In this document: in pieces, positions 2,083 to 44,890 of the stretch
How the letters are laid out: the number at the start of each line of letters is the position of its first letter
Numbering within the stretch: the first letter of the stretch is position 1
IMG/VR virus record: IMGVR_UViG_3300032290_001086
From: a virus
Taxonomy: Duplodnaviria > Caudoviricetes
DNA length: 64,000 nt
Reading direction: 5' to 3' (one strand)
Program-made: the position numbers and the translations under genes
The notes under the pieces: generated by a model
Seen by the model: the letters and a program-made list of their open reading frames with translations, nothing else
Database searches by the model: none
Told to the model about the DNA's origin: nothing

Positions 2083-3884
2083 ATGACTGCTACCATCGCT
2101 CAACGCAATGGAAGTAATACATGGGAACAGTTCTGTGAGTGGGTAACATCTACCAACAACCGTCTGTATGTCGGTTGGTTTGGAACTCTTATGATTCCTA
2201 CCCTTCTCGCTGCTACTATCTGTTTCATCGTTGCTTTCATTGCTGCTCCTCCCGTAGACATACTGCTTTAATCTGTGTCCTTCATCCGTAAGGATGATGT
2301 TAAAACTGGGTGAATTGCTGGAAACCGAAAGGCAATCAGCAGCCAAGTCCAAAGTACACTTTGGAAAGGTTCAGAGACTACCTGAGGGGTTTAGTCCCCT
2401 TAATAACAGGCTAGAGTGCCCAGCCCCTTTAATCTAATTAAAGGGTGAAGATATAGTCCAAATCTCACAGTTGACTTTTATTCGCACTTGTTGTATAAAT
2501 ATAACAGTAGGTGCGAAAACAAAATGCTCGATTTAACGGAATCACAAATTACTTGGATTGCGGGAATTTTAGAAGGTGAAGGATACTTTGGAATAGATAA
2601 TCGTTCTAAAGACCGTTATGACTCTTCTAAAGCACCACCAGCACCATATATTCGTCTTGTTATGACTGATGAAGATGTGGTTGCTAAACTAAGTAATTTT
2701 GTAGACAAACCCTATTTTGTACCCAATAGAAAAACACTCAAAGGAAAACCAGTCTATGTCCTTCATATAGGAAATAGAGAAAAAGTTCTTTTCATTTTGG
2801 AAAAAATACTTCCCCATATGGGAAATAGAAGAAGTGAAAGAATTAAAGAATGTATTTCTTATATTAATGAGTGGAAAGAGTGGGTAGAAAATGGTGGGAG
2901 AGTAGAAAACGCAAAACGAGCAAATCAAATAGGTCAACTGAAACGGTCTAAGTCGCAAGATATGACTGTTTTACTGGGATAAGAGACGGGATTCGTGAAC
3001 CAGTTGCTGGTTCTCTAATGTACGGAAACAACATCATTTCTGGTGCTGTTGTTCCTTCTAGCAATGCTATCGGTCTGCACTTCTATCCCATCTGGGAAGC
3101 CAACTCGCTTGACGAATGGCTATATAATGGTGGACCATTCCAATTGGTCGTATTCCACTTTCTAATTGGTATCTATGCCTACATGGGTCGTGAATGGGAA
3201 CTTTCTTACCGTCTTGGTATGCGTCCCTGGATTTGCGTTGCTTACTCTGCTCCTGTTGCTGCTGCTTCTGCGGTCTTCCTTGTATATCCTTTCGGTCAAG
3301 GTTCCTTCTCTGATGCAATGCCTCTTGGAATCTCAGGAACGTTTAACTACATGCTCGTCTTCCAAGCAGAACACAACATTCTTATGCATCCGTTCCATAT
3401 GCTTGGGGTTGCTGGGGTATTTGGTGGCTCTCTCTTTAGTGCTATGCACGGAAGTCTGGTTACGAGTAGCCTTGTTCGTGAAACCACAGAAGTAGAATCT
3501 CAGAACTACGGCTACAAGTTCGGTCAAGAAGAAGAGACTTATAACATCGTTGCTGCTCACGGTTATTTTGGTCGCCTTATTTTCCAATATGCTTCCTTTA
3601 ATAACTCACGTTCGCTGCACTTCTTCCTTGCTGCTTGGCCTGTAGTTGGTATCTGGTTTACTGCTCTTGGTGTTAGCACCATGGCATTCAACCTCAATGG
3701 TTTCAACTTTAACCAGTCGATTACCGATAGTCAGAATCGTGTCATCCCCACCTGGGCAGACATTCTGAATCGTGGTGGTCTTGGAATGGAAGTGATGCAT
3801 GAGCGAAACGCTCACAACTTCCCCCTCGACCTGGCTGCTGCTGAGATGACTCCTGTTGCTCTTACTGCACCAGCCATCGGCTGA
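2083..3884 (+). CDS. psbA: Photosystem II D1 protein, spliced: exon 1 2083-2261, exon 2 2984-3884 (359 aa)
   Basis: …IAAPPVD-I|[16 protein letters not shown]…[10 protein letters not shown]; joined exons give 1080 nt in frame; GREWE (Glu130, high-light D1 type). Confidence 0.98.
2471..2517 (+). promoter_or_regulatory. Intron-internal promoter(s) and RBS-occluding hairpin for the endonuclease
   Basis: TATAAATA 2494-2501 at hairpin apex; TTCGCAC 2481-2487 pairs GTGCGAA 2511-2517 over AGGTG; TTGACT 2471-2476 is 17 nt before TATAAA. Confidence 0.75.
2524..2982 (+). CDS. Intron-encoded single-motif LAGLIDADG homing endonuclease (152 aa)
   Basis: [17 protein letters not shown] motif, [11 protein letters not shown]; stop TAA immediately precedes the intron terminal G. 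Confidence 0.85.
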
Positions 3885-3954: not shown

Positions 3955-4353
3955 ATGCAAATTAATTTTCAATCTCAAAGTAAAAAAACTGGAATGGAAT
4001 TTGAAAATCTTGTAGAAGAACATTTACGAGATTCCAGAAAATCAGTTCTACATAAAAATTTTAAATTTGATTCAATTGGAATAGATGTTGACTTCGTAGC
4101 AACAGATGGTCTAATAACTGAATACATCGAGGTAAAAGGTGGACTTTCTGGAGATAAAAAGAGACCAGGAGCCCAACGTACAGACAGTGTTAAAAAAGCT
4201 ATCGCAAATGGAGCTTTATTAAAGTCTATGAAACCTGATGCATACTTTGTAATTTATTTTTCTGCGAGACCAAAACCAGGAAGTTCTTCTGATTTGATGT
4301 TACAGAATGCATTAGATGCAGGATTTGTAGATGACATTCGTTATTTGACTTGA
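3955..4353 (+). CDS. PD-(D/E)xK restriction-endonuclease-like nuclease
   Basis: GxEFE…IDVDFV…YIEVKG motif order. Confidence 0.7.
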   Translation: MQINFQSQSKKTGMEFENLVEEHLRDSRKSVLHKNFKFDSIGIDVDFVATDGLITEYIEVKGGLSGDKKRPGAQRTDSVKKAIANGALLKSMKPDAYFVIYFSARPKPGSSSDLMLQNALDAGFVDDIRYLT

Positions 4354-4693: not shown

Positions 4694-5071
4694 ATGCCTT
4701 ATAAAAATAAAGAACAGCAACGAGAAGCCCAGAAACGGTGGGCACAAAAACAATCGGATGAGTTCAAAAAAATTAAATATCAACGTGAATACGATAACAA
4801 AAAATTAATGGTAGAAAAACTTAATAATTTTAAGCTTGAAAAGGGTTGCTGTGAATTGTGTGGAGAGTCTCATCCTGCTTGCTGTTTTGACTTTCACCAT
4901 GTAAATGAACTAAATAAAAAAACAGAGGTGTCAAAGCTTGCCTCTAAAGGATATAAGTGGAAAACTATTCAAGAAGAAATTGACAAATGTATTATGCTTT
5001 GTGCCCTTTGTCATAGAAAAATTCATGCTGGATTATTAGTATTAATGGAGAATAGCACCGATGGTCGGTAA
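4694..5071 (+). CDS. HNH (zinc-finger) endonuclease, probable free-standing homing endonuclease
   Basis: CELCG…DFHH…LCALCHRKIH pattern with basic N-terminal helix. Confidence 0.85.
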   Translation: MPYKNKEQQREAQKRWAQKQSDEFKKIKYQREYDNKKLMVEKLNNFKLEKGCCELCGESHPACCFDFHHVNELNKKTEVSKLASKGYKWKTIQEEIDKCIMLCALCHRKIHAGLLVLMENSTDGR

Positions 5072-5129
5072 ATCGTCTTGAAAACGATGCCAGGTTAATA
5101 GCCTGATAGTTCGATTCTATTATTCTCCG
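5047..5129 (+). tRNA. tRNA-Ser(UGA), 8/4 non-canonical fold, no encoded CCA
   Basis: Acceptor GGAGAATA/TATTCTCC, D ACCGA-TGG-TCGGT, anticodon arm ATCGT-CTTGAAA-ACGAT, long V arm, T ATAG-TTCGATT-CTAT, G discriminator. Confidence 0.9.
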
Positions 5130-5147
5130 CTTGTTCATACTTTAATT

Positions 5148-5884: not shown

Positions 5885-5966
5885 GGGTAGGTGTCCGAGT
5901 GGTTAATGGAGGTGGACTGTAAATCCACTGGCTCTGCCTACGGGGGTTCAAATCCCTCCCTGCCCA
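5885..5966 (+). tRNA. tRNA-Tyr(GUA)
   Basis: GGGTAGG/CCTGCCC acceptor, GTGGA-CTGTAAA-TCCAC anticodon arm, GGTTCAAATCC T arm. Confidence 0.97.
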
Positions 5967-29854: not shown

Positions 29855-32800
29855 ATGGCTCTAACTAGAGTAACTTCTGGTGGTATTGCAGAAGGCGTAG
29901 TTATTAGATTTAGTGGAAACGGCACTCCAGAATACCGTGTGCCAGGATCACCTGCAATTACGTTTGAGAACGACACAGATACAGGCGTATACAATCCAAA
30001 TCCAAATGAACTTGCAATTACTACTGGAGGAACTGCTAGACTAATTTTCAAGTCTGATGGTCAGATTGTTACTGGGAACGGAACTTCTCTTGGAGGTACT
30101 AACCCAGACTTCGCAAATGCTACAAATATTGTTCTTTACGTTAACCAGTCAGATAAGAACGCAACTGATGTAGAGACAAACGACGGCGGTAATATTAACA
30201 GACCTTTTAAAACAATTGAGAGAGGACTTGTAGAAGCAGCAAGAAAGAGTTATGTAGCACAAGGACAAGACAGATTTGAAGCGTACACCATTATGGTGTT
30301 ACCTGGAGATTATACAATTGATAACCGTCCAGGTATTGATGTAACTACTAACCCACTTGCTGCTTCTGCATCAGAAACCCCAGGATCTTCTGCAACAACT
30401 GGAAATCTTGCAACAGGATCTGCATGGAGATTTAACCCAAGAAATGGTGGGGTCATTGTACCTAGAGGTACTTCTATTGTTGGTTATGACCTAAGAAAGA
30501 CAGTTATTCGTCCTAAGTATGTTCCATCACCAATTTCTGATGACGGAAGCATAACAAGTGACAACTATGTGATTAGTGGTGTCATGTATGATGCTGCTAA
30601 TATGATTCAGAAGGCTCGTGGATTTATTGTAGAGCAAGCATTTTTACATGCAAAGCAACTATATCCTTCCATTGGAAATATCAATGAAACTTGCAAAAGA
30701 GATATTGGATACATTGTAGATGCTGTTATTACTGACCTTAGAGAAGGTGGTAACGCAAATTCATTTGTAGCTGGTGAATTCTATACTGATGGAACTTCAC
30801 TAAGATTTATTGCTGATGGTACTGAAAAAATTGCGACTCTAGCTGCATTCAATAAAGCTAGAGATATCATGCTTCATGCTATTAATGCATGGATTACTAA
30901 TAATGTTCCTGCTAATTATAGCTTTACTGAGATTACAACTGGAGCTACTCCAGGTCTCAAGCCTTCATATACTAGTACTGGTGTAAATAAGGATTATTCT
31001 ACTGGTAGCACATATGATTCTTCATGTGCTACTGCAGAGTCTGCAATTATTAGTTTAATGGGTATTATTACTGGCATTGTCAGTAATCCAGATACTTATA
31101 CCGAGTTATACAAGAAAGTTCTAGGTGTTGGGTTCCAAACATCAATCTTTAAAGTAACTGGTGGCTGCTACTTCTGGCAGATGACCTTTAAAGATGCCAA
31201 GACAAATCCATTAAATTCTGTAACCTATAATGGAAGTGGAATTCCAACATTCACTCAAGCAACTACGCCATTCTATTCTCACCACAGAGTTGTTTCATTT
31301 ACTTATGCAGATCAAAGAACAACTGATGGTGAACTAGATAAGTACTATAAGAGAATTGACTCTTGGGCTGCAGATATTACTGTTGGCAATGAGCCAAGAA
31401 TTGCACGTCCAGAAGAATATACTATCGTTGGTGATGCTTCTACTAAGCAAAGTATTGATACTGTAAACTCTGCATCTCCTTACATCTTTAACTGTTCACT
31501 ACGTTCTATCCTCGGTCTTTGCGGTATGCATACCGATGGTAGTAAAGTTAAAGAGAGTAGCTTCAAGTCTATGGTTGTTGCTCAGTTCACTGGAATTTCT
31601 CTACAGAAAGATCCAAACGCATACTGGCAACCAAGAAACGCAACTGGTAGAGTATATACAGATTCTCTTACAACATTCCAAACTGGAGATTCAATACGAA
31701 ACGTAGAAAATGAATCTGAGAGTATAGACAATCTTGGCCCAATCTATGCAGATCCAAACGCAGAATATAAGCATGATTGGAGACACTTCCACATTAAAGC
31801 TTCTGAAGGTGCATTCATTCAGGTAGTTTCGGTTTTCGCAGTTGGCTATGCGGACCAATTCTTGGCAGTTAATGGTGGTGATATGTCCATCACCAACTCT
31901 AACTCTAACTTTGGACATATTGCACTCAGAGCAGTTGGAAACAAATTTACTGTAGATCCACCTTCTGCATATGGTAAAATTACAGCACTTATTCCTCCTG
32001 CTGGTATTTCCAATACTTCACAGTATACTGAAATTTATCCAATTGCAACTGACATTACTTGGAAAGCAAACCTTGGAGAATCCGCAGAAAAAACTCAGCC
32101 ATTCTGGGGACAGGCAAAGACTAACTTTAGTACTGCTAATGGAAACTTCTTTAAATTATATCTTGAAATTCCAGGAGTACAGGCAGAATCAGATATTCCA
32201 GAACTTGTAGTAGAATCAAAAGATGTAAATACTGGAAATATAGTAGTTAAAAGATTCTTAACATTTGGCGCAAATAATAACTACAATTTATTCAGAGATT
32301 ATTACACCACTGCTGGGGTGCAAGCTCAGGCAGATTGTAAAATTTCTAACCAAGTAGATACTGCTACTGGTGGAGTTTCAAACTACGAAGCAGTCATTGA
32401 ACTTGCTGCATCAGCTACTGGGGATAATACAACTAACGTACCAGGCAACCTTCAGAGACAAGGTTACTTCTGGGATCCAAGTAGACAAAAAGTTTATTTA
32501 AAAATCAACCCAAATTACACCTCATCTAGAACATATGTTGCAGACTTCTTATTTTCTAGCGTAATTGAAACTCAATTCGTAACAGTAACAGAAACTCTTC
32601 CAGATGGAAGCAGCCAGGTTGTTTCTAGAACTGAGGATGTAAATGTACTAGAATGGTGGGATTCATTCCCAGGAAGTATTACATCTGCGAAGTTTGTTGA
32701 TGCTAGAGCAGCAAATCCAAATGATTTACTCTGGAGAGTTAAGTACGTTATTCCTAAGGATTATAGAGATCCAGATTTGAAAGTTCTTACTCCAAAGCCA

Positions 32801-35800
32801 CCAGAAAAGAGATTTATTATTAAAGGTACTGCTCCAGGAAATGATGGATACGGTATTCCATATAGTAGCTATAGGTTTACAATTTGGGATGTACAAGAAA
32901 TTGATACTTGGGAAAGAGATGTTAGAGATGGTGTATACTATCTAACAGTATTAAGAGCTGATGTTGATAAATTTATGGATGGTGATAGTGGTTCATATAA
33001 GAACTCACCAATCACATTAACTCGTGATGATCAATATCAAACTATTGTTGCAGATGGACTATCTGAACTTTATAGAAATGATAATAATTATAGAGTATCT
33101 ACTAACGTAAACTACCTATATCCTTCAACTAACGAAGAAGGTAATATCACTAATGCAAGAACAATTTGGAACCCACCACAAACAGATTCACGTTGTATTG
33201 TTGAATATCTCAGTGGGCAGGGTGCTAATGGAGCATATAGACCAAAAGATGTTTCTGTACCTAACAAAAAATATTATAATACATCAGTATCAACCACTCC
33301 ATTCTATGAAGTTCCTGCATTAACATCTGTTACTGCAGAAGCTTGCCATAGACTTGTAGCAGCATTAAATCTTTGCTATGTTAAAAACGTATCTACTACA
33401 TCTACCCAAATTAAGGTAGCTCCAGTTTGCAGTTGGGATGCTAGAACTACATTTGGAACTCAAACTATTAATGGTACTGCTAATACTGCATTATTCAATT
33501 CAGTATCTACTACGTTCAATATCTATGGTGATGTAAGTGAAAGCAATCCTACAAACTATAGATGGGGTTCTGGTAAATCATTCAACTCAACTAGTGATTT
33601 AAATCAATATGGTGTTAATGGATCTGAAGAAGATAGAAAGATTGTCTGTTGTTCATATTCACCTTCAGTTACAAATATTACAAATGGTAATGAAGTAACT
33701 AACGAAAGTAATACTATTCTTTCTCTAGGTCCAGTAGTACCTCTTTACAGACCATCTATTCTTCGTGCATCTTCACATACATGGGAATACATTGGTATTG
33801 GTCCTGGTAACTATTCAACTGGTTTCCCAAATCTACAGACCAGAGTTCTCAAGCCATATGAGCAATTCATTGTTCAGGGATATGAAAATGGTGGTGGTTT
33901 CATTGCATCATCAGGTACAAACTCTGCTGGTGACTTCTACATCGGAAACCAAGTTATTCAAGCTGGTGGTCAGTCCACTACAACTCTAAACGTACCAAAA
34001 GTTCGTAAATCTTCAGAATCAAACTCAGTTGATTTTACTGATATTGAAAACAGAATTGCAAACAACGTTATTAACGTTATTGCATCTGAAAATAGAAGTT
34101 CTGCTAGCCAGAATCTTCTCAAGGGGCTTTCAAACTTCTTCACTACTGCAAGATTAACTGTTTCTGATAGAGCTAATATTCAAACTCTATACATCACTGA
34201 TAAACTTTATATTGCAAATACTAAGATTCTCAACGGAGATAAGTTCCCAGAAGGCGGTCCCGAAGGATATGGTTTTGCTAAGGGTGCAAGACCAGAAAAG
34301 ACTGGTTTTATTGCAACTGATACTAATGATAGACTTTATGTATCTCCTAAATTCCTTGATGCATGGAGAATTAAGAAGAAGATTCTATCTGCTTCAAACG
34401 TTAACCTAGATAACAACAGAATCTATATTGAACCACTCAGCAGAACATTTATTAATTCTATACAAACTAGTTTAACTACCGCTCTCACAATTCCAACATT
34501 ATTCAATGGAAGCCTTGTAAGAAATATAGTTGGTGGTGTAACTTATGGTGTATTAACTATTACTGGTGGTGCAACTGCAACTTCTCTAAATCTATACGTT
34601 GGAATGAAAATTGCTCAGTATGTAACTTCTGGAAGTGCTGTTCTTACTGGCGAGGCAAGAATTAAATCAATTGATTCCACAACTCAGGTTACTTTAGAAA
34701 ATGTAACTGCTGTTCCCGCAACTTCAACTTCTGGTCAATTCTATGGAATTGATAGAATCAGATTGTTTGATACCAGTGGATTACCTCCATTTGGTAGAAT
34801 TGATCTTGAAATGTCAATCAACCAAATTACTGCAGAAGATTATATTCTTGATTCTGGCATTAAGTACTACTTCAATCCTACTATTAATATTTCTTTACAG
34901 TATGATGATATTGATTATACTAATAACACTCTTGAAGTAACAACAATTCAAAATTACCTTTCATATTATGATTATGTACGTAGTGTTCTACCAGCTTCTA
35001 GTGCGTTCAATCTACATACAATTACAAGAAATTATTCCTCAGTTCTACCTGTAATTGATAGTGATGCAACTTTAACTGATACTCAGTATCTAAGTGGAAC
35101 TATTACTGGAGTAACTGCACATCCAACTGCAGGACTAATTTCAAACACTTCAATTCCTTCAAGTATTGTTGATGTTCCTAGAAATGATTTCTTAGTAAGA
35201 ATCGGCGTAAGCTCCACATTCTATAATACTGTTCCTTCCAGAGGTGCAGTAACCATTAGAAGAAGTGTGTCTGGATCAGTAAGATATACAACATTGGTAT
35301 ACTTCAAGAATACTAATTTCTCCAATCAACTTTGTATTCTAAGAAGAATTGATACTCAATCTAAGAGTGATAGCTCATTTACTTACAGCACTAGCGATCC
35401 ATTCACTAAGATCTTCTTTACTGGTTCTACTTGCTATGCATCTTATGGAGATAAGTGGACGTTTGAATCCGCATTCATTCCTTCAGTAGAAACAATTACG
35501 GAAGATGTAGACATCGAAAGTGCAACTCTATACACATTACCAGAAAAGCCTGTTCCATATACTGGAGATGTAGATACAACATATACAGATTCTATTGTTC
35601 CAAACCCAGTAACCTCAAAAGCTCTTGGTGCAAACTTACAGACCAAGCGTGCAGTTAAGACCTTCCAGCCATTTGAAACCCTAACTCAAGCAGCTAAGTT
35701 TGCAGAAGAGTCTGCATTTGGTCCAACTGATGAAATTGAAATTCTAATGAAGCCTGGTTACTACAGACTTGTTGGATCTACATTCCCATGTCAAGTTAGA

Positions 35801-38800
35801 ATTAATGGTTCTGGAGTAACAAGCACTACAGAGCAATACTCTAAAGAATTTGCTAAGAGATCTGCTGGAAGAATCGGTGGATATGCATTAACAGATGTTC
35901 GTTCTGGAGATAGCGTAAACTTCTTTAGAAGTGCAGATTTCAGTAACAACTATGCAGGTAGAACTGACTTACTCTATGTTTCAACTGGTGGAAGAAATAT
36001 TACTTCTACTGGTGGTCTAGACATTAGTAATGTACACTTCTTAGGTCTCAATGAAGCTATCACAAGAAATGAGATTCTTGATAACTCATACTCTGATGAT
36101 ACACAAGTTATTATTTCAAGAAGAAGAGTAAGAAAAGCATGGTATGTTAAGAAGTCAACTGGATTCCCAACAAGCACTGCTGGTGTTCTTGGTGGACTTG
36201 GTTTCCATGCAACTTATGCAAGTACAACTGGAAAACCATCATTTAGTTATACTGTAAATGATGCAGGATTAACTGATGAATCTGGTGTAATTGTAGCTCC
36301 AGCAGTAGATGTTAATAATGTTGCAAAAGATGCTAGGTACATGGTTATCACATTTACTGCAACTAACTTTAGCAGCACATCTGGTTCTCCAAGTGATAAC
36401 CAAAGATTTAATTGGATTAAAGATTATGTAATTCCTGGAACTACGTTATTCTATTTCCCAAATAATACTGGAACTAGTGCTACTGTAGATTCTACTACTA
36501 GAAAGACTAGAGTTCTTGATGTAAGAAAGAACTTTACTGGAACTACTCTTACTAGCATTCAAGTTTATGTTGCGATGTACGATGGTGGTGGATTTACTTC
36601 AGAAGATGAAGATTTAAATATCAGTGAGATTAATGATCTAACTAATGGACTCTATTTTGTATTTGTTAATCGTGATGGTGATGAGTTTGTAACTCTTACT
36701 TACAACTGGTGTTTAGAAATGAGACGCCAGTTACTGCCAAAAACATTTACAACTTCTGGAGAAGGATATGATCCAACTTCAGTTGACACCCCAGAAATTT
36801 ATGGAATCATTGCAGGTTACACTAGAGATACTCTAAACTTAGTTATCGACCTTAATCCTACTGCAGATTTTGGTGGAATCAGAACATTCTCATTCACTAC
36901 TGCAGGAGCTGCAGCTGGAGATGAAACTTATAATGGAATTACTCCAGTAAGTCCACCTACATCTGGAGGAACTGGAGCACAATTTACAGTCACCAGAAGT
37001 GGTGGAGTATATAGCGTACTTATAGCAGAGGCTGGTTCTGGATATAAGATTGGTGATATAATCACACTTTCTGGAACTGCAGTTGGTGGTGGATCTAATA
37101 TCACTGTAACAGTTGGAGCAATTACTCCTGCTAAGTCTAGATATACAGGTGCAGGAATTATGGGCAAGCACCCATCTATTCTTGTTAAGATCGGTGATAC
37201 AAGTGAAGAATATAGTGTAACTATTCCAACCACACCTAATGGATTCCTAAGAACTTATGGATTTACAAATGATAGATTCTATCTATTGGAAGTAAACTCC
37301 GCTGTTATTGGAAGTACTACTGATAATATTGGTGTAAATGGTACTGTAGTTGGTGGATTCTCTGGTTATGGTTTCTCTGATATTAATGGATATAGTGCTC
37401 TAGACGGAGGAACATTTACATTTGAAGGTAAGACTTATCCTCAATCTGCAAGAAGAAAGACTGTATTTTCAAGCAGAGCTGAGCTTGATGCTGTTGCTAA
37501 GTATAATCTATATCAGTCTGGAGGTAATCAATCTGCAAATCCATACGGATACTACAGAAGTGGTGCTCTCGGAATGACCACAAGAGGCAGAGAAATTTTC
37601 ATTAACTATGCACAAAATTATAGAATTTCTAGAAAGAAATTCCCAACTTCTGCTCCTCCTTCAGTCGGAAATCTAGGTACTACTTTAATTAGAGTAAATG
37701 GTATTCCTGGAAGTACAAACCAAGTAACTCTTAGTGATGTAACTGTCGGTGCATTCTCAGATTCTAGTGACAGATCCAACACATATGGTGGTGGATATAA
37801 CGGGGGTCTAATTGCAATTAATAATGGCCAAATTAATATCCGTGGTCTCAGAATTAGAGGTAATTTAATTCTTGATTGGTCCAGTCTTCTAACTGCTGGT
37901 GGAGCTTCTAGATTAAATTCAAATAATAAATTTGGATATGGTCACTCTGTAGATTTAATTGAGCCTAGAGAAACTTCCTATGTAACTGGAATTGGTGCTA
38001 ATAATTATAGAAGATTGAATGTAAGTAAGGATGATATTAACTTCCAGTACTATACGACATATACAAGAACAAATAATATGTATATTGAGCCTAATTTCCT
38101 ACCAACTGGAAAGAGGGTTGATTATGACTCAAGAGCATTCCCAATCACAACCATTGCTGCAATTCCTAAATTTGATGACCAAACTTTAAATTATAAGACT
38201 CAAGTTATACTAGATGAGAAGTTTAGCACACAAAGACTGATTTATGCATCAAGTGGTGCAAATACAAGTGGATATAATCTAAGATATAATAACACTACTA
38301 CAACTATTCCTGCTAATACTCCTGGAGGACATCCAAACTCTGCTAAGGAACTTCTCAGAAAAACTCTGGTATTTACTCTTCCTTATAGCACTGAAAATGA
38401 GCAAAATATTGCAGAAAATATCGCTAAAAATGTATTCCCTAACTTTACTAAAATTGTAAGATTTGGTAACACTGATTCTGTTCTTGCTACTGTTACTCAA
38501 CTTTCATTCTATAATCAACTAGGAGTAGCATATTTTGAGATTACTTTCAGTGGAAATATTGAATATAATAATCTAGATAAGACAGATGGCACTCCATCAA
38601 ATTGGACTGGATTTGAACTTCAATTACTAACTAACTATATTCCATCCCAGAGATTTAATTATCTTGCTACACTAACAACAAGATATAAGAAGATTGCAAA
38701 CTCTGATGTTATCAGTTCTACTGGTGCTGCAGTTGGAACATATTCAAGACTAGAAATTGGATATGATGCTGCACAGAAGCGTTCTGTATTTGCAGAAAAT

Positions 38801-41800
38801 AAAGATTTAAAGGTGGAATATATTGGAAACGGTATTCCTAATATAACTAGAGCTTCTGTAGTCACATTTACTAATACAAATAAAGCTCCTGCTCAATCAG
38901 AAGGAGATAAAATTAAAGTATTGATGGAAACTGATGCAAGTGGAAAGATTCTTTCTATGGATATTATTTCTCTTGGAATCAATAATAACCCAGATGAAAT
39001 TTCAGAATATTCTACTGGAGGTAATGGATATAAGCTTACCGTACAAAAGAGTGCAAGAGTAAGAACTCAAATAACTGATATTGATTATGAAATGTTTGCT
39101 CCTGGAGAAGTTACAGTTGCTCCTTCTAACAATACATTTATTGTTAATAACTTTATTGAAACCAGTTTAACTGGAATCAAGGCTTCCTTACAACGTGCCA
39201 AGTCAATCATTGCTCCTGGTAATTACATTCTCTATGGTGGTCAATATTATAAGATTGCTAAGAGCCAGCCAAATAAGCCATATCTATCTGTATATCAGTA
39301 TGTAAATCCAGCAAATATTGAAGATATTAGAACTTCTCTAGTAGTAAGACTAGAAGAAGAAAGCTATAATATCACTTACAGCAGAACATTAGGTGCTGCA
39401 TATAATAATGAACTAATTACTAGATTTGAACTTTATGAAGATGATAATGTTCTAAGATACTGGCCAGATGCTGGACGACTAGAAATTGGTGAACTTGAAC
39501 TTGCAGACTTTACAAAACAGTATATTGATGGATTTACTGGGTATAGACTAACTCTTGATAGAAGCAATACTAAATATTGGCCTTCCTATATTCATGATTG
39601 GGATGGTATTGATATCGTAGAAACAATTATTGCTGGAGATCCTACTGCTCCAACACTTGCAGCCCCTGGAATATCTGTAAATAATGTTGTTGCTACTGAA
39701 CTCAGACTAGCAGATCCTGTGGATGCTACATGTTCAACTTATAAGAGAATCAAGTCTGTCGGTTATGAAGAATTAAATAGTCAATACTTTACTCATAGTG
39801 GTATTGCTACTACAAATAGAGCATATGTTGATATTGTAAGTTCTACATCAACTTTAGCTGAAGATTTCCAGAAGTACGAAATTGGTCAGACAATTAGCAT
39901 TCCATTTAGAAATCTTCAGCACGGATATTATAGAAGAGGGTATAATAATTTCTATGATTCATATCCACAACTTTATAAGTTTAAGGTAACAGCTTCAGTT
40001 GGTACTGAAGGTAGTGCAAGTTCAACTAACCGTGAAGGAGATAACTTAATTACTGGTATTCTCTATAATACTAAGCCAGCAACAACAGATCAGGCATCAC
40101 AGACAAATGATACTTCAGGAAGAATTTACTTCCAGAATATTGCTGGAATGTCTCAAATTCTAAACTCTACAAATACCTATACAGGAACTTCTACAAATAG
40201 AAAAACTACGTATCAAATTTCTGACTACGTTGATCCACTTTCAGTAGTACAAGCAACTAGAGGTATAGATTCACTTCCTGGGGTTCCTTTAAATGGAAAT
40301 CTAACTACTGGTGAAGGAACTCTTTCTGGAGTAACTCTAAATGTTGGTTCACGAACAATCACCACTACTAGTGGAATTGGAATAGTTCCTGGATTAAGAG
40401 TTATCCATCCAAATCTAAGTGAAGAATGCAGAATTAGCACTGTAAGAAGAACTGGAACCTCTCCAAACTTTACTTATGAAATAAATCTAAACTCGGGTCC
40501 AACTGCAAATATCACTAATGGTACAATAACATTTGCAGCAAATGAGCCTGTAATTCTAAAAATTGATCATCCTCTACTTGCAGATCTTCCAGTGGGAACT
40601 GAATTCCATATTGTACCTACATTCAACCAAGAAGGAACTACATTAACTAGATTCGTACAAATCTATAAGAGCAGAATTGTTGACATTCAAGCTATTGGTG
40701 GAAGTGATAATGTTATTAGACTTTATCTAGCAGATCCTCTTACTTTTGGTGGAACAAATTATATCACTGATGCTGCAAATGAAAATAGCATGACACACCC
40801 AGATTCCAGACATTATGGTTTCTGTTCTATAAACATGGGTGGTTGGTCATATCCAAGAAGTGGAGGAAGCTATTTTAATTCTAATGCTGTGAGGACATTA
40901 ACTCAGGCAGATCAACTTAAACTTCCTAACTATTCAAATAGAATTAAGTCTGGGGACATTCTAAGATATACATATGAAGCAAACACTGTTATTCAGGGTA
41001 TTTCAACAAGTTCTGTAAATCTTGGAAGAGCAAATAATTTCTTAAGATTATCTTCAATTGCGGTTGATCAAGGTGATTCCATTAAAGCTCTATTTAATAA
41101 GAAAACTGAATACTATGGAACTAGAGACATTTATAGAACTCAAGGTACTTATGTCGTAACACATAGAAGATATCTTGACCAATATGGCGATTCTACTGAT
41201 GATTATCGTTTCAATAACTCATATTCTACAGCAGGAGGAACCTTCTTTACAACATATGCTAAGACAACTGATGTACAAGCAAGTGGAGGTGCTTCAACAA
41301 TTACATTGACTGATGTTAGTGGAATTGTAGTTGGTGATGTTGTTACTGGAACTAACATTGGTTCTAATAGAAGTGTCACTGCAATTAACGGAAATATAAT
41401 TAGTATCAGTCCTTCTACTACTGGAATTGTTGCAAGTGGAACTACATTAACATTCTATGGATTATCCACGGCTACTCCTACAACATCATATTCATTTAAT
41501 GGGACTACTTATTACATAGATTATGGTATTAGTGGACAAACTAGTGGTTCTCCAACACCTGCTGCCACTGCAATTAGTGTTTGGACTCAAACAGGTAATG
41601 CATGGGGTACATATTACTTTAATGGAACTACATTAGTTCAAAATACTACTGACCCATGGAAACAATCTATTGTTCTTTCTGGTCCAAAAGATAAGCCTGG
41701 AGTTAGAAATAGACAAAGTTTTGGTGAAAATGCGGAGATTACATTTACAGTTGATCAATTTGGTGGAATAGAAACATTATCTATTACTAACGGAGGAACT

Positions 41801-44800
41801 GGATATAGAATTAATGATTATCTCATCATCAAAGGTGGATTATTTAACTTTAATAACCCAAGATATTCTAGTGATCTATATCTTTATATCAGTAAAGTGG
41901 ACCCAACTGGTAGAATTCTATCTTTCATTCCAAGATTTAGACTATCTTCTCCACTAGATAATAGAATTGTCGATTTTGATTTTGTTCACTCAGGTGCAAC
42001 ACCTACATGGACTGCTACAAATACTGCTACTGTATCAATAAGTGCGGTAAACCATGGATATGTAAATGGCGATATTGTAAATCTAACATTTAGTTTATCA
42101 ACTGGATCTAATATTGCTTCTACTGGTCAATATAAGGTTATCAATGCAACACCAGATGCATTTAATATTACTAACCCAACTTCGTTAACTGGAACAAATA
42201 CTGGAAATGTTAATATTGGAACTGATAAATTCTATTATCAATCATTAACTACAAATACTGCTGCTACAACTTCATCTACTATACTTCCTGTTTCTAGTGT
42301 TTCTGGAATCAATGTTGGAGATAAATTGTTTGGATTGGGTACTAATGTAGAAGTAGTATCTGTTGATAGTGATACTCAAATTACTTTAAACACTGCAGTA
42401 AGTGCTCCAGCTCCAGTTACATTAACAGTTACAAATTATATTTCTACAGGTACTACTACAATAACTGCAACAGTTTCTTCTACTACTGGAATTTTAGTTG
42501 GTGATGTAGTTGTTATTTCAGGTGCTACTGGCACTGAACCAACTAAATTAAACGGAACTTGGGAAGTTGCATCAGTACCATCTGGAACTACATTTACATT
42601 TGTTGTAAATACTCCTATTACTACTGGTACATATACAACTGGTCTTGGAACTGCAATTGAATCTACTCCATTAGTATTTACTACATTCTTACCAGATGAA
42701 ACAATGTATATTGATAATGTGAATGGAAGTGATATCTTCTTGATGGCAAGATATACTATTAATGGATTAATTCGTCAAACTATAGAGTATACAGTATCAT
42801 ATCTTGGAGGATTTACTGCTGGTCAAAGAGTAGTATTTACAACTCCAAAACCATCTCTGAAGACTGTATCTGGTGTTGTAACTGCAGTTACTTCTGTAGA
42901 TGCAAATGGTTACTCCACTGTTACAGTAGATACCGCAGACAATATTCTATATTCTACACATCCAACAAAAGAAGATTGGCTATCTGTAAGTGATATTCTC
43001 GTTTCACATCAAAATGATCTGTTTGCATATGATGGTCCAGTAGCACAAAGATTTATTCACAGTGAATACGGTGGGGGATTACAATTCTCAGACTTCAGCA
43101 TCTGGAATAGTTACTACAGAAATGGAAGTGAAAATAAAGGTTATGGAATTTATGGAAGCTTTGGATGGGTAGGTAATTTTGCGAGATCTATTGATGGTGC
43201 AAGAATGATTGGTTTAACTTCAAGTGGTGCATTAAGTATTAACTGGAGTAGACAAAGAGCAAATAGTATTTGGCAAGTTGCACAACCAATTAGACCAGGA
43301 TGGACCCACACTGGGGTATCAAATTCAACCGAACTTACCACATCTGCATTCTCTCCAAACTTCGCTTATGTATATTGCCATGGGTCGGATACATTCTTCA
43401 ACTCTGCATATCCATTCTATGTAATGGAAAATGGTCAGGCAATCACAAATGCAGGACAACCAAATACAATCAAGCACACAAATCTAAATACTGAAAATCT
43501 ACTACTTACTCTTAATAATGCTGCACCAGCTTACAGCCCAACTTGGTCCAGTGGATTCTACCATACTGGAGGAATTGGATCTCTAAATTATGGAATGTAT
43601 AAGTGGTCATCTACTTTTGATTCTACCAAGCCTTCTAGAATTAGAAATCTGAATAAGGTTTCATGGAGGTATCAAGATGCTAAGTTTAGAGGAGGTGTTT
43701 CTGGAAAATGGGGAGATCTTAGAGCTGGAACTGGTGTAAACACCAGACTACAAGAATCAATGATTATGAATTATGTTCAACCATATCAACTCTGTGCATA
43801 TGATTCTTCAAGAATGGTAAGAGTTGCTAACTATACCATCACTAGCCTATTCAGCACTGCTCTGAATACAACTGGTGCATCTGGTTCAAATGGTCTAGTA
43901 AGCTTAACATTTGCACCTCAAGGTTCAGCTCCATACTTCCCAGGTCAAAAGATTATCGTTTCTGGAATGACTCCTGCATCATATAATGGAACCTGGACAG
44001 TTGTAAGTTGCTCAACTACAAATGTAACATTCTATTCAAATGCATCTGGCAACCAAACTGTAGCGGGAACTATCACACCAATTATCACAGATATAAACTT
44101 CAATGCTAATATTTTTGATGGTAGAGTTCTCACTACTGGAACTGATCAGATTGTTGCAGGTAAAGATTACTTTATCGGTGGAGTAACTGGTGCGGTTGCA
44201 AACGCTATTGGAACTGATTATACTCCAGATGTTGACTTTACTGTATTCGGTGCTCCTAATAATAAGGTTGGTACAGTGTTCACTGCTACAATCACTGGAA
44301 TTCCACCAATTAAGGGAGGAGGTACTGCTAGAAGCTTCGTTGATATGAGTGGAAAGATTTCTAAGAATGATGCAATCTACACTTCTGCAGATGGTGTAAA
44401 CTTTACATTCATTGGATTTGTAAATTCTATACTCAACACAACAAGAGTAAGATTGAGTGCTCCAATTGCTGCAATCTCTTCTGCTGCTAATGTGTATGTC
44501 CTGAGAGTACGTGGTCTCAAGACAACTACATTTGATAACTCAGTTACAAATAGAGGTTTAACAAACCTCAAGGGTGAAAACGTTCTATCATCTGAAATGG
44601 CAGGATGTAACCAATATAACGTGGCAATGGTTATTAGCAGAAGAACTTACAATACTACACCACTAATTAATACTGAAAACACTGTTCAACCTATCGGAAA
44701 TAGATGGTGGTGGGGTGGAGGTGAGGTAGGACATCTATCTGTAAGACCTACATTTGGTGATCTATCAGCATTTGAATGGACTCCAATGAATATAAATATG

Positions 44801-44890
44801 ACTAGATTTAATAAGAAAGTCCACTTAGAATCTACCGTTACCGTAAACGCTAGCGGTTCTACAATTGGACTAGATAGTGTATACATCTAA
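29855..44890 (+). CDS. Giant (5011 aa) virion structural / tail-fibre-like protein
   Basis: MALTR start, RPFKTIER, PRGTSIVGYDLRKT, VSVFAVG, RASSHTWEYIG motifs of cyanophage fibre proteins; T/S/G-rich; late promoter. Confidence 0.8.
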   Translation: MALTRVTSGGIAEGVVIRFSGNGTPEYRVPGSPAITFENDTDTGVYNPNPNELAITTGGTARLIFKSDGQIVTGNGTSLGGTNPDFANATNIVLYVNQSDKNATDVETNDGGNINRPFKTIERGLVEAARKSYVAQGQDRFEAYTIMVLPGDYTIDNRPGIDVTTNPLAASASETPGSSATTGNLATGSAWRFNPRNGGVIVPRGTSIVGYDLRKTVIRPKYVPSPISDDGSITSDNYVISGVMYDAANMIQKARGFIVEQAFLHAKQLYPSIGNINETCKRDIGYIVDAVITDLREGGNANSFVAGEFYTDGTSLRFIADGTEKIATLAAFNKARDIMLHAINAWITNNVPANYSFTEITTGATPGLKPSYTSTGVNKDYSTGSTYDSSCATAESAIISLMGIITGIVSNPDTYTELYKKVLGVGFQTSIFKVTGGCYFWQMTFKDAKTNPLNSVTYNGSGIPTFTQATTPFYSHHRVVSFTYADQRTTDGELDKYYKRIDSWAADITVGNEPRIARPEEYTIVGDASTKQSIDTVNSASPYIFNCSLRSILGLCGMHTDGSKVKESSFKSMVVAQFTGISLQKDPNAYWQPRNATGRVYTDSLTTFQTGDSIRNVENESESIDNLGPIYADPNAEYKHDWRHFHIKASEGAFIQVVSVFAVGYADQFLAVNGGDMSITNSNSNFGHIALRAVGNKFTVDPPSAYGKITALIPPAGISNTSQYTEIYPIATDITWKANLGESAEKTQPFWGQAKTNFSTANGNFFKLYLEIPGVQAESDIPELVVESKDVNTGNIVVKRFLTFGANNNYNLFRDYYTTAGVQAQADCKISNQVDTATGGVSNYEAVIELAASATGDNTTNVPGNLQRQGYFWDPSRQKVYLKINPNYTSSRTYVADFLFSSVIETQFVTVTETLPDGSSQVVSRTEDVNVLEWWDSFPGSITSAKFVDARAANPNDLLWRVKYVIPKDYRDPDLKVLTPKPPEKRFIIKGTAPGNDGYGIPYSSYRFTIWDVQEIDTWERDVRDGVYYLTVLRADVDKFMDGDSGSYKNSPITLTRDDQYQTIVADGLSELYRNDNNYRVSTNVNYLYPSTNEEGNITNARTIWNPPQTDSRCIVEYLSGQGANGAYRPKDVSVPNKKYYNTSVSTTPFYEVPALTSVTAEACHRLVAALNLCYVKNVSTTSTQIKVAPVCSWDARTTFGTQTINGTANTALFNSVSTTFNIYGDVSESNPTNYRWGSGKSFNSTSDLNQYGVNGSEEDRKIVCCSYSPSVTNITNGNEVTNESNTILSLGPVVPLYRPSILRASSHTWEYIGIGPGNYSTGFPNLQTRVLKPYEQFIVQGYENGGGFIASSGTNSAGDFYIGNQVIQAGGQSTTTLNVPKVRKSSESNSVDFTDIENRIANNVINVIASENRSSASQNLLKGLSNFFTTARLTVSDRANIQTLYITDKLYIANTKILNGDKFPEGGPEGYGFAKGARPEKTGFIATDTNDRLYVSPKFLDAWRIKKKILSASNVNLDNNRIYIEPLSRTFINSIQTSLTTALTIPTLFNGSLVRNIVGGVTYGVLTITGGATATSLNLYVGMKIAQYVTSGSAVLTGEARIKSIDSTTQVTLENVTAVPATSTSGQFYGIDRIRLFDTSGLPPFGRIDLEMSINQITAEDYILDSGIKYYFNPTINISLQYDDIDYTNNTLEVTTIQNYLSYYDYVRSVLPASSAFNLHTITRNYSSVLPVIDSDATLTDTQYLSGTITGVTAHPTAGLISNTSIPSSIVDVPRNDFLVRIGVSSTFYNTVPSRGAVTIRRSVSGSVRYTTLVYFKNTNFSNQLCILRRIDTQSKSDSSFTYSTSDPFTKIFFTGSTCYASYGDKWTFESAFIPSVETITEDVDIESATLYTLPEKPVPYTGDVDTTYTDSIVPNPVTSKALGANLQTKRAVKTFQPFETLTQAAKFAEESAFGPTDEIEILMKPGYYRLVGSTFPCQVRINGSGVTSTTEQYSKEFAKRSAGRIGGYALTDVRSGDSVNFFRSADFSNNYAGRTDLLYVSTGGRNITSTGGLDISNVHFLGLNEAITRNEILDNSYSDDTQVIISRRRVRKAWYVKKSTGFPTSTAGVLGGLGFHATYASTTGKPSFSYTVNDAGLTDESGVIVAPAVDVNNVAKDARYMVITFTATNFSSTSGSPSDNQRFNWIKDYVIPGTTLFYFPNNTGTSATVDSTTRKTRVLDVRKNFTGTTLTSIQVYVAMYDGGGFTSEDEDLNISEINDLTNGLYFVFVNRDGDEFVTLTYNWCLEMRRQLLPKTFTTSGEGYDPTSVDTPEIYGIIAGYTRDTLNLVIDLNPTADFGGIRTFSFTTAGAAAGDETYNGITPVSPPTSGGTGAQFTVTRSGGVYSVLIAEAGSGYKIGDIITLSGTAVGGGSNITVTVGAITPAKSRYTGAGIMGKHPSILVKIGDTSEEYSVTIPTTPNGFLRTYGFTNDRFYLLEVNSAVIGSTTDNIGVNGTVVGGFSGYGFSDINGYSALDGGTFTFEGKTYPQSARRKTVFSSRAELDAVAKYNLYQSGGNQSANPYGYYRSGALGMTTRGREIFINYAQNYRISRKKFPTSAPPSVGNLGTTLIRVNGIPGSTNQVTLSDVTVGAFSDSSDRSNTYGGGYNGGLIAINNGQINIRGLRIRGNLILDWSSLLTAGGASRLNSNNKFGYGHSVDLIEPRETSYVTGIGANNYRRLNVSKDDINFQYYTTYTRTNNMYIEPNFLPTGKRVDYDSRAFPITTIAAIPKFDDQTLNYKTQVILDEKFSTQRLIYASSGANTSGYNLRYNNTTTTIPANTPGGHPNSAKELLRKTLVFTLPYSTENEQNIAENIAKNVFPNFTKIVRFGNTDSVLATVTQLSFYNQLGVAYFEITFSGNIEYNNLDKTDGTPSNWTGFELQLLTNYIPSQRFNYLATLTTRYKKIANSDVISSTGAAVGTYSRLEIGYDAAQKRSVFAENKDLKVEYIGNGIPNITRASVVTFTNTNKAPAQSEGDKIKVLMETDASGKILSMDIISLGINNNPDEISEYSTGGNGYKLTVQKSARVRTQITDIDYEMFAPGEVTVAPSNNTFIVNNFIETSLTGIKASLQRAKSIIAPGNYILYGGQYYKIAKSQPNKPYLSVYQYVNPANIEDIRTSLVVRLEEESYNITYSRTLGAAYNNELITRFELYEDDNVLRYWPDAGRLEIGELELADFTKQYIDGFTGYRLTLDRSNTKYWPSYIHDWDGIDIVETIIAGDPTAPTLAAPGISVNNVVATELRLADPVDATCSTYKRIKSVGYEELNSQYFTHSGIATTNRAYVDIVSSTSTLAEDFQKYEIGQTISIPFRNLQHGYYRRGYNNFYDSYPQLYKFKVTASVGTEGSASSTNREGDNLITGILYNTKPATTDQASQTNDTSGRIYFQNIAGMSQILNSTNTYTGTSTNRKTTYQISDYVDPLSVVQATRGIDSLPGVPLNGNLTTGEGTLSGVTLNVGSRTITTTSGIGIVPGLRVIHPNLSEECRISTVRRTGTSPNFTYEINLNSGPTANITNGTITFAANEPVILKIDHPLLADLPVGTEFHIVPTFNQEGTTLTRFVQIYKSRIVDIQAIGGSDNVIRLYLADPLTFGGTNYITDAANENSMTHPDSRHYGFCSINMGGWSYPRSGGSYFNSNAVRTLTQADQLKLPNYSNRIKSGDILRYTYEANTVIQGISTSSVNLGRANNFLRLSSIAVDQGDSIKALFNKKTEYYGTRDIYRTQGTYVVTHRRYLDQYGDSTDDYRFNNSYSTAGGTFFTTYAKTTDVQASGGASTITLTDVSGIVVGDVVTGTNIGSNRSVTAINGNIISISPSTTGIVASGTTLTFYGLSTATPTTSYSFNGTTYYIDYGISGQTSGSPTPAATAISVWTQTGNAWGTYYFNGTTLVQNTTDPWKQSIVLSGPKDKPGVRNRQSFGENAEITFTVDQFGGIETLSITNGGTGYRINDYLIIKGGLFNFNNPRYSSDLYLYISKVDPTGRILSFIPRFRLSSPLDNRIVDFDFVHSGATPTWTATNTATVSISAVNHGYVNGDIVNLTFSLSTGSNIASTGQYKVINATPDAFNITNPTSLTGTNTGNVNIGTDKFYYQSLTTNTAATTSSTILPVSSVSGINVGDKLFGLGTNVEVVSVDSDTQITLNTAVSAPAPVTLTVTNYISTGTTTITATVSSTTGILVGDVVVISGATGTEPTKLNGTWEVASVPSGTTFTFVVNTPITTGTYTTGLGTAIESTPLVFTTFLPDETMYIDNVNGSDIFLMARYTINGLIRQTIEYTVSYLGGFTAGQRVVFTTPKPSLKTVSGVVTAVTSVDANGYSTVTVDTADNILYSTHPTKEDWLSVSDILVSHQNDLFAYDGPVAQRFIHSEYGGGLQFSDFSIWNSYYRNGSENKGYGIYGSFGWVGNFARSIDGARMIGLTSSGALSINWSRQRANSIWQVAQPIRPGWTHTGVSNSTELTTSAFSPNFAYVYCHGSDTFFNSAYPFYVMENGQAITNAGQPNTIKHTNLNTENLLLTLNNAAPAYSPTWSSGFYHTGGIGSLNYGMYKWSSTFDSTKPSRIRNLNKVSWRYQDAKFRGGVSGKWGDLRAGTGVNTRLQESMIMNYVQPYQLCAYDSSRMVRVANYTITSLFSTALNTTGASGSNGLVSLTFAPQGSAPYFPGQKIIVSGMTPASYNGTWTVVSCSTTNVTFYSNASGNQTVAGTITPIITDINFNANIFDGRVLTTGTDQIVAGKDYFIGGVTGAVANAIGTDYTPDVDFTVFGAPNNKVGTVFTATITGIPPIKGGGTARSFVDMSGKISKNDAIYTSADGVNFTFIGFVNSILNTTRVRLSAPIAAISSAANVYVLRVRGLKTTTFDNSVTNRGLTNLKGENVLSSEMAGCNQYNVAMVISRRTYNTTPLINTENTVQPIGNRWWWGGGEVGHLSVRPTFGDLSAFEWTPMNINMTRFNKKVHLESTVTVNASGSTIGLDSVYI

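Follow-up and report, generated by a model that had tools for sequence, protein, structure and literature searches.

The psbA gene of a probable T4-like cyanomyovirus is split, after its nucleotide (nt) 179, by what is very probably an active mobile group I intron of the IA type that encodes its own LAGLIDADG endonuclease. The gene lies on a 64,000-nt stretch of viral DNA (Duplodnaviria; Caudoviricetes; IMG/VR record IMGVR_UViG_3300032290_001086), the whole of which is called the window below; psbA and all parts of the intron are on the plus strand. This interpretation draws on sequence anatomy, covariation, a predicted fold and the population pattern of the element, while splicing, cleavage and promoter use are predicted.

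Exon 1 occupies positions 2083-2261 (179 nt) and has the 3′ end ...GUAGACAU; the intron follows at 2262-2983 (722 nt), and exon 2, starting with AGACGGGATTCGT, covers 2984-3884 (901 nt including the stop codon). The exons were delimited from the list of open reading frames (ORFs), the sequence and the joined coding sequence. Before the 5′ splice site, exon 1 reads ...CCCGTAGACAT, and its reading frame stops within the intron at UAA 2269-2271. Joined by script, the exons make 1080 nt and encode a D1 protein of 359 amino acids, reading ...AAPPVDIDGIREP..., which shares 344 of 359 residues (96%) with the D1 of Synechococcus phage S-CREM1, whose psbA is uninterrupted. The ligated exon junction expected from the sequence is ...GTAGACAT|AGACGGG.... 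A first-pass annotation, made from the letters alone, had placed the intron at these positions, taken the U·G pair of P1, P10 and the terminal G as markers of the splice sites, and proposed that splicing restores PPVDI-DGIREP within a 359-residue D1. All its coordinates and junctions are right, and its further claims, that the intron carries its own LAGLIDADG endonuclease and is self-mobile, are supported by the evidence set out below.

Ribozyme structure and intron boundaries

The Rfam group I model (RF00028) matches window positions 2252-2481 over its full length (1-253) with 85.5 bits (gathering score 50, E-value 2.9e-21). The same boundaries recur in 27 loci, and all 27 introns examined end in G, as does the present one (G2983). 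For covariation, 20 distinct homologous introns were aligned with 10-nt exon flanks and a structure of 72 base pairs (bp) was drawn by hand. Standard pairs fill 98% of the cells of this model and 24 of the 72 pairs are changed on both sides; none of 500 shuffles reaches the observed values, and slid controls are 35-44% paired. Compensatory changes are found in P2 (three pairs), P6a (six), P7.1 (two), P7.1a (three) and P8 (one). P3, P4, P5 and P6 are invariant across the 20 introns, an invariance that, for P3, P4 and P5, is uninformative on pairing.

At the 5′ splice site, P1 (2257-2279) pairs GACAU 2257-2261 with GUGUC 2275-2279, placing the pair U2261·G2275 at the exon end. P1 is invariant and its U·G pair is present in all 20 aligned sequences. 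The 3-bp P10 pairs the guide UCU (2272-2274) with AGA at the start of exon 2 (2984-2986). Its pair at alignment columns 23/803 is G-C in 14 sequences and U-A in 6, the guide and exon being UCU/AGA in the clade of the window and UCG/CGA in the other clade. A synonymous change of an isoleucine codon thus covaries with the guide sequence of the intron. The core, delimited by the Rfam alignment, extends over 2283-2459 and comprises P2 with a GUAA loop, P3, P4, P5 with the L5 sequence GAAA (2327-2330), P6/P6a, P7, P7.1/P7.1a, P8 and the R and S elements. An additional hairpin, P7.1, located between P7 and P3′, assigns the intron to the IA type, in agreement with the IA1 label of an algal intron at the homologous position (see below).

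The 3′ end is separated from this core by an L9 insertion of about 500 nt, closed by the long-range pairing P9.0, in which the 5′ strand AUCUCA (2462-2467) faces the 3′ strand UGGGAU (2975-2980). The latter overlaps the stop codon of the intron ORF, and the terminal G follows at 2983. P9.0 exists in three mutually compensating forms, AUCUCA/UGGGAU, ACAUCUA/UAGAUGU and, in introns devoid of an ORF, AACUUCA/UGAAGUU. Within the last codons of the ORF lies the P9.1 hairpin (2940-2972), which is 99-100% paired, has two pairs changed on both sides and is unchanged in the ORF-less introns. It harbors the 11-nt GAAA-tetraloop-receptor motif (UCUAAG 2947-2952 with UAUGA 2961-2965). We infer from the motifs a tertiary contact between the invariant GAAA of L5 and this receptor, since the receptor is canonical and since the reverse arrangement is seen in the second psbA intron of phage S-SRM01. 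In that intron (S-SRM01 is MW015081.1, locus L001), the receptor motif CCUAAG...UAUGG is in P5 and GAAA in L9 (~3020-3050 and 3170-3185), reciprocal to the window intron.

The nuclease and its cassette

The L9 insertion contains a single-motif LAGLIDADG homing endonuclease gene of 152 codons (2524-2982; ATG at 2524, TAA at 2980-2982), whose stop codon ends one base before the terminal G of the intron. The motif reads IAGILEGEG, with the acidic residue at position 8 present; its G14, L16, E17, G18 and E19, the last at the catalytic position, are among the residues invariant in 34 relatives. Homologues sharing 61-69% identity with the window protein carry PF14528. The AlphaFold model has a predicted local distance difference test score (pLDDT) of 88.5 and the fold α-β-β-α-β-β-α, like the solved members of the family. 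A Foldseek search of the PDB returns LAGLIDADG enzymes exclusively among its first 40 or more matches (probability 1.00, template-modelling scores 0.55-0.62, E-value about 1e-6), led by the homodimeric I-CvuI, I-CreI, I-TnaI, I-MsoI and I-CeuI. Comparison of the intron ORF with its relatives gives ratios of non-synonymous to synonymous substitution of 0.03-0.32, indicating purifying selection.

Prediction of a two-copy complex scores 0.76, as compared to 0.02 for the best of three controls. The runs agree on 100% of contacts, the partner pLDDT is at least 81, and the two chains meet at the motif helix (residues 6-19), where their E19 residues lie next to one another. In calibration on solved proteins, 20 of the 30 that are pairs of one chain and one of the 23 that are single chains attain this mark. 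The dimer is a model only, and as I-CreI-type dimers have already been solved, the score may reflect likeness to known structures and be no independent test.

In two stretches of the ORF, codons 17-24 and 117-124 (window 2572-2595 and 2872-2895), third-position diversity among 20 homologues is 0.11-0.17 bits, as compared to about 0.5-0.8 elsewhere, which suggests either a constraint at the nucleotide level or a recombination hot spot in the nuclease gene. To note, the family matched by the window protein, PHROG 5046, carries a misleading 'HNH endonuclease' label, and in many actinophage and cyanophage records, genes called 'LAGLIDADG endonuclease' in the GenBank original are likewise named 'HNH endonuclease' in RefSeq.

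The history of the cassette can be read from two contigs, L046 and L050, in which site 179 holds ORF-less introns of 261 and 254 nt, respectively. Beyond P7, the 5′ strand of P9.0 (AACUUCA) is followed in these introns by two hairpins, P9 (CAGA-GUAA-UCUG) and CCUAAGUC-UUAU-GAUAUGG, then, past a short spacer, by the 3′ strand of P9.0 (UGAAGUU) and the terminal G. Introns with an ORF have, in place of the small P9 hairpin, a leader hairpin and the ORF, together about 500 nt; the reading frame continues through the conserved CCUAAG...UAUGG hairpin (2940-2972) and then the 3′ strand of P9.0. From the ORF-less versions at site 179, the nuclease cassette is recognized as an insertion in L9. No free-standing LAGLIDADG gene was found next to the ORF-less introns in the examined DNA of the two contigs. 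Both contigs hold further psbA introns with HNH-type ORFs (L046 9900-12600; L050 6800-10000), a multi-intron organization like that of some green-algal psbA genes.

The leader hairpin (2481-2517) displays at its apex a TATAAATA box (2494-2501), the sequence of the late-promoter box of phage T4, and in its 3′ strand AGGUG (2509-2513). The box stands 23 nt and AGGUG 10 nt before the ATG of the ORF. The hairpin folds with -15.1 kcal/mol (z-score -4.1), five of its stem pairs have compensatory changes, the TATAAATA box is invariant in 20 sequences, as its apex TGTATAAATA is invariant, and the hairpin is missing from the ORF-less introns. On the plus strand of the window, 9 of the 14 NATAAATA boxes fall 23-64 nt upstream of ORF starts, including those of large structural genes. 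In the td intron of phage T4, the I-TevI ORF is reportedly transcribed from a late promoter, its ribosome-binding site being sequestered in the precursor messenger RNA (pre-mRNA). The present case resembles it in its T4-type phage and IA-type intron, and in that a TATAAATA box shortly precedes the ORF and lies in a hairpin together with the putative ribosome-binding region; the td nuclease differs in being a GIY-YIG enzyme encoded in P6a, and for the window the regulation is deduced from the sequence.

Homing, proposed mechanism and rival explanations

Mobility is indicated by two other contigs (L007 and L008), whose introns are 99.9-100% identical to that of the window while their exons 1 and 2 are only 89% and 83% identical. 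The identity extends over flanks of 32 nt upstream and 39 nt downstream, beyond which about one position in five is mismatched. A near-identical intron within diverged exons, bordered by short identical flanks, is the footprint expected of homing with short co-conversion. Since identity in the intron is far above that in the exons and the identical flanks are short, a recent transfer of the intron between different phage psbA genes would explain the pattern. A further intron (L011; IMGVR_UViG_3300005805_000226, 1103-1825) is a mosaic: the 5′ part of its ribozyme and its 3′ end are 92-98% window-like, but in mid-ORF the identity drops to 73-75% and the sequence resembles the other clade, which indicates recombination between intron variants.

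In the spliced psbA, the candidate target is pseudo-palindromic about GAC|AT, a centre lying 2 nt to the 5′ side of the insertion site, and is symmetric at 7 of 11 positions; only 7 of 1058 centres in the coding sequence reach this degree of symmetry, which stems from the codons of P-V-D-I-D-G. Its geometry fits a homodimer that cuts the central 4 bp. The exact 26-nt target is unoccupied in four viral contigs (L093-L096). Site 179 is also intron-less in the isolates S-CREM1, S-PM2 and S-SRM01, in which synonymous bases differ at this place.

Put together, the ribozyme would fold around P1, with its U·G pair at the 5′ splice site, the P3-P8 core, the P7.1 hairpin and the long-range P9.0, the latter returning the distant 3′ end, with G2983 and the 3-bp P10, to the core. 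The intron would then self-splice from the pre-mRNA, leaving an intact message for the 359-residue D1. In the full-length pre-mRNA, the leader hairpin would hide the ribosome-binding region and keep the ORF silent, as in T4 td/I-TevI. A late transcript initiated from the TATAAATA box, and thus starting inside the hairpin, would permit expression of the nuclease. The protein would act as an I-CreI-type homodimer on the intron-less pseudo-palindrome CTCCCGTAGAC|ATAGACGGGAT, centred 2 nt 5′ of the insertion site, and repair of the break from an intron-bearing allele would copy in the intron with about 30-40 nt of flanking exon.

Several observations weigh against this interpretation. The covariation comes mostly from two or three clades and thus represents few independent events; P5 is only 2 bp long, and the L5-P9.1 contact is deduced from motifs alone. 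The window protein scores below the Pfam LAGLIDADG_1 cut-off (14.8 versus 23.1 bits) and its sequence matches to PDB entries are marginal (E-value 0.05), so that its family assignment rests on the motif, the fold and the Pfam-positive homologues. The exact TATAAATA 8-mer is not enriched across the window (5 found versus 8.8 expected), and the invariant box in the leader hairpin could instead be a tertiary element of the RNA.

That the split psbA might be an assembly artefact or a dead pseudogene is next to impossible, as the same architecture is present in about 30 independent contigs from many samples and the joined exons encode, in one frame, a full-length D1 that is 96% identical to that of an isolate. 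Another alternative accepts splicing and considers the LAGLIDADG protein to be by now mainly or only a maturase, in an element that no longer moves. LAGLIDADG proteins with maturase-like activity are known, such as that of a Thermotoga 23S intron (PMC3984707), I-TnaI is among the top structural matches, and a ribozyme with a very short P5 and a 500-nt L9 insertion might need help in folding. Yet the catalytic-position E19 is invariant, the identical intron in exons diverged by 11-17%, with its short identical flanks, points to recent transfer at the DNA level, and the 254- and 261-nt introns persist at site 179 without this protein, which together make this alternative highly improbable.

The nuclease might also serve the phage as a weapon against the psbA of its host, besides homing between phages; the first-pass annotation had envisaged cleavage of intron-less host or competitor genes. 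The PPVDIDG region is universal in D1, so that every host psbA offers a related DNA site. Against such a role, the intron-less alleles have several synonymous differences from the occupied site, and one genome each of 185,579 prokaryote species yields no close relative of the nuclease or the intron and hence no sign of host-gene invasion. We consider this additional function highly improbable, and favor an active homing intron exchanged between phage psbA genes.

Distribution and comparison with known systems

The same intron and ORF are found at site 179, between ...PPVD and DGIREP..., in four metagenome loci and about 30 IMG/VR contigs. A junction-pattern scan of viral contigs gave 51 loci, of which about 39 are chance matches in unrelated genes and only those in psbA were used; with its 7-nt spacer, the commonest clade fell outside the gap range allowed. 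Metagenomes contain 75 relatives of the ORF at cluster level, none of them bearing a name other than 'hypothetical'; two of the clusters have 386 and 63 members. No copy of the element is present in 50,697 GenBank phage records: a DNA search of these with the whole intron returns similarity to the ribozyme core only (introns of S-PM2, S-RSM88 and S-SRM01 and of crAss-like phages), and the ORF is in no record. Relatives of the nuclease in the same records are only 25-38% identical, and one of them is located in the capsid-gene region of mycobacteriophage LittleE. Among one genome per species for 185,579 prokaryote species, a protein search detects no close relative of the nuclease; the relatives found are only 28-33% identical and belong to metagenome-assembled genomes of Actinomycetota and Chloroflexota, none to cyanobacteria. 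A full-text literature search combining psbA, LAGLIDADG and cyanophage retrieved no paper describing the element in a phage.

The closest counterparts are introns of green-algal chloroplasts, which the first-pass annotation had mentioned at about this site. Oc.psbA.1 of Oedogonium cardiacum is a IA1 intron at site 179 with an ORF in L9 that has one LAGLIDADG motif and 184 codons (PMC2442088, Table 4), and Ulva psbA-179 encodes a single-motif LAGLIDADG protein within 695 bp (PMC10151680, Table 2). Gene, insertion site, intron group and nuclease type are thus shared, the L9 location is shared with Oedogonium, and the Ulva intron is of similar size to the 722 bp of the window intron. The differences are the host, a eukaryotic organelle versus a bacterial virus, and the length of the Oedogonium ORF as compared to the 152 codons of the window. 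On the basis of site, ORF position in L9 and nuclease type, the cyanophage and chloroplast elements may form one lineage, a proposal that we regard as possible but rather doubtful. If true, a homing intron would have crossed between a cyanobacterial virus and a eukaryotic organelle. Independent assembly is a live alternative: a free-standing LAGLIDADG gene of a phage would have joined an ORF-less intron at the naturally palindromic site coding for PVDIDG. It stays live because a profile search has no chloroplast-named protein in the best 120 of 764 matches and because the nearest Atlas clusters are viral.

The psbA intron of phage S-PM2 resides in the same gene of the same kind of phage, and its ribozyme core is 83% identical to that of the window over 111 nt. 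As the first-pass annotation had stated, it is small, ORF-less, near the 3′ end of the gene and dependent on the free-standing F-CphI, a case of collaborative homing (PMC6083498); it measures 212 nt and is located at nt 1002. Its nuclease is of the Endo VII type and encoded downstream of psbA, whereas the LAGLIDADG gene of the window is inside the intron. At the position of F-CphI in S-PM2, directly after psbA, the window has a 132-residue ORF (3955-4353), which was rejected as an F-CphI-like partner: it has no similarity to it (E-value 0.5) and no PHROG match, and its only hit is a weak one to UPF0102, of nuclease fold (E-value 0.007).

Nuclease-bearing psbA introns have been described in S-SRM01 and S-CBWM1, one in each (PMC8557907); as in the window, a cyanomyovirus psbA is split by group I introns with nuclease ORFs. 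S-SRM01 in fact contains three psbA group I introns (MW015081.1, 1322-3800; Rfam 39, 92 and 82 bits), of which the record annotates only D1 fragments and nucleases. The core of the second is 76% identical to that of the window intron. None is inserted at 179: the first lies behind ...AIGLH, near nt 276, a site number that it shares with a IA1 intron widespread in Chlorophyceae (PMC2997540), another comes after ...NIVA and another at about nt 1002. Their ORFs are HNH or Endo VII-like.

At the protein level, I-CreI, I-CvuI and I-MsoI, from group I introns of chloroplast 23S rRNA, resemble the window protein in their single motif, length of about 150 residues and fold, and in dimerization through the motif helix, the last two being predicted for the window. 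The targets of I-CreI-type enzymes are pseudo-palindromic, the intron being inserted at the border of the central 4 bp, as at the candidate site of the window. Sequence identity is only 12-18%, and the target in the window is a protein-coding gene of a phage.

The first-pass annotation had set LAGLIDADG enzymes, typical of organellar and archaeal introns, against the GIY-YIG and HNH enzymes classic of phage introns. According to a review (PMC3984707), the introns of phages mostly carry GIY-YIG, HNH, PD-(D/E)xK or EDxHD enzymes. LAGLIDADG genes as such are no rarity in phages, with relatives present in 146 GenBank phage records, mostly as free-standing genes of actinophages and cyanophages. It had also held that novelty would be reduced if the same site with a LAGLIDADG gene were already widely catalogued in cyanophages. 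The combination is widespread in viral metagenome contigs, but those copies are labelled only 'hypothetical protein'. The element is real and a mechanistically ordinary selfish element, the phage-borne counterpart of the algal psbA-179 intron, and its novelty is modest, because this very site is occupied, in the chloroplasts of Oedogonium and Ulva, by group I introns whose ORF is of the single-motif LAGLIDADG kind, and because LAGLIDADG genes are common in phages.

Genomic setting and significance

The neighbours of psbA in the window encode a ferredoxin, a phage lysozyme, a gp32-type single-stranded DNA-binding protein, a baseplate hub, an exonuclease and an RNA ligase, and the nearest psbA sequences come from Synechococcus phages. 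The gp32, baseplate hub and exonuclease proteins are of T4 type, and this gene content points to a T4-like cyanomyovirus as the source. Upstream of psbA (1986-2019), a sigma-70-like promoter (TTGACA, 17 nt, TACTAT) overlaps a T4-late-type TATAAATA box (2012-2019), and psbA itself may therefore be read both early and late. Downstream are a free-standing HNH endonuclease ORF (4694-5071; phrog_3106, E-value 1.3e-24), whose end is inside or adjoining a tRNA-Ser(tga) gene (5047-5130), and a tRNA-Tyr gene (5885-5966). Farther on, a single ORF of 5011 amino acids (29855-44890) has a TATAAATA box 36 nt upstream.

Cyanophage psbA, a key auxiliary metabolic gene that serves widely as an ecological marker, hosts homing introns at more sites than the usually cited S-PM2 case. 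The LAGLIDADG-bearing intron is abundant in viral metagenomes, yet annotated there as 'hypothetical protein' only, and psbA amplicon or metagenome surveys will mis-call or split the genes that contain it. Site 179 displays a natural series, from the intron-less allele through the ORF-less intron to an intron with a nuclease cassette in L9, whose reading frame is fused into the helices of the ribozyme. The element also provides a test case for the exchange of introns between cyanophages and chloroplasts at an identical psbA site.

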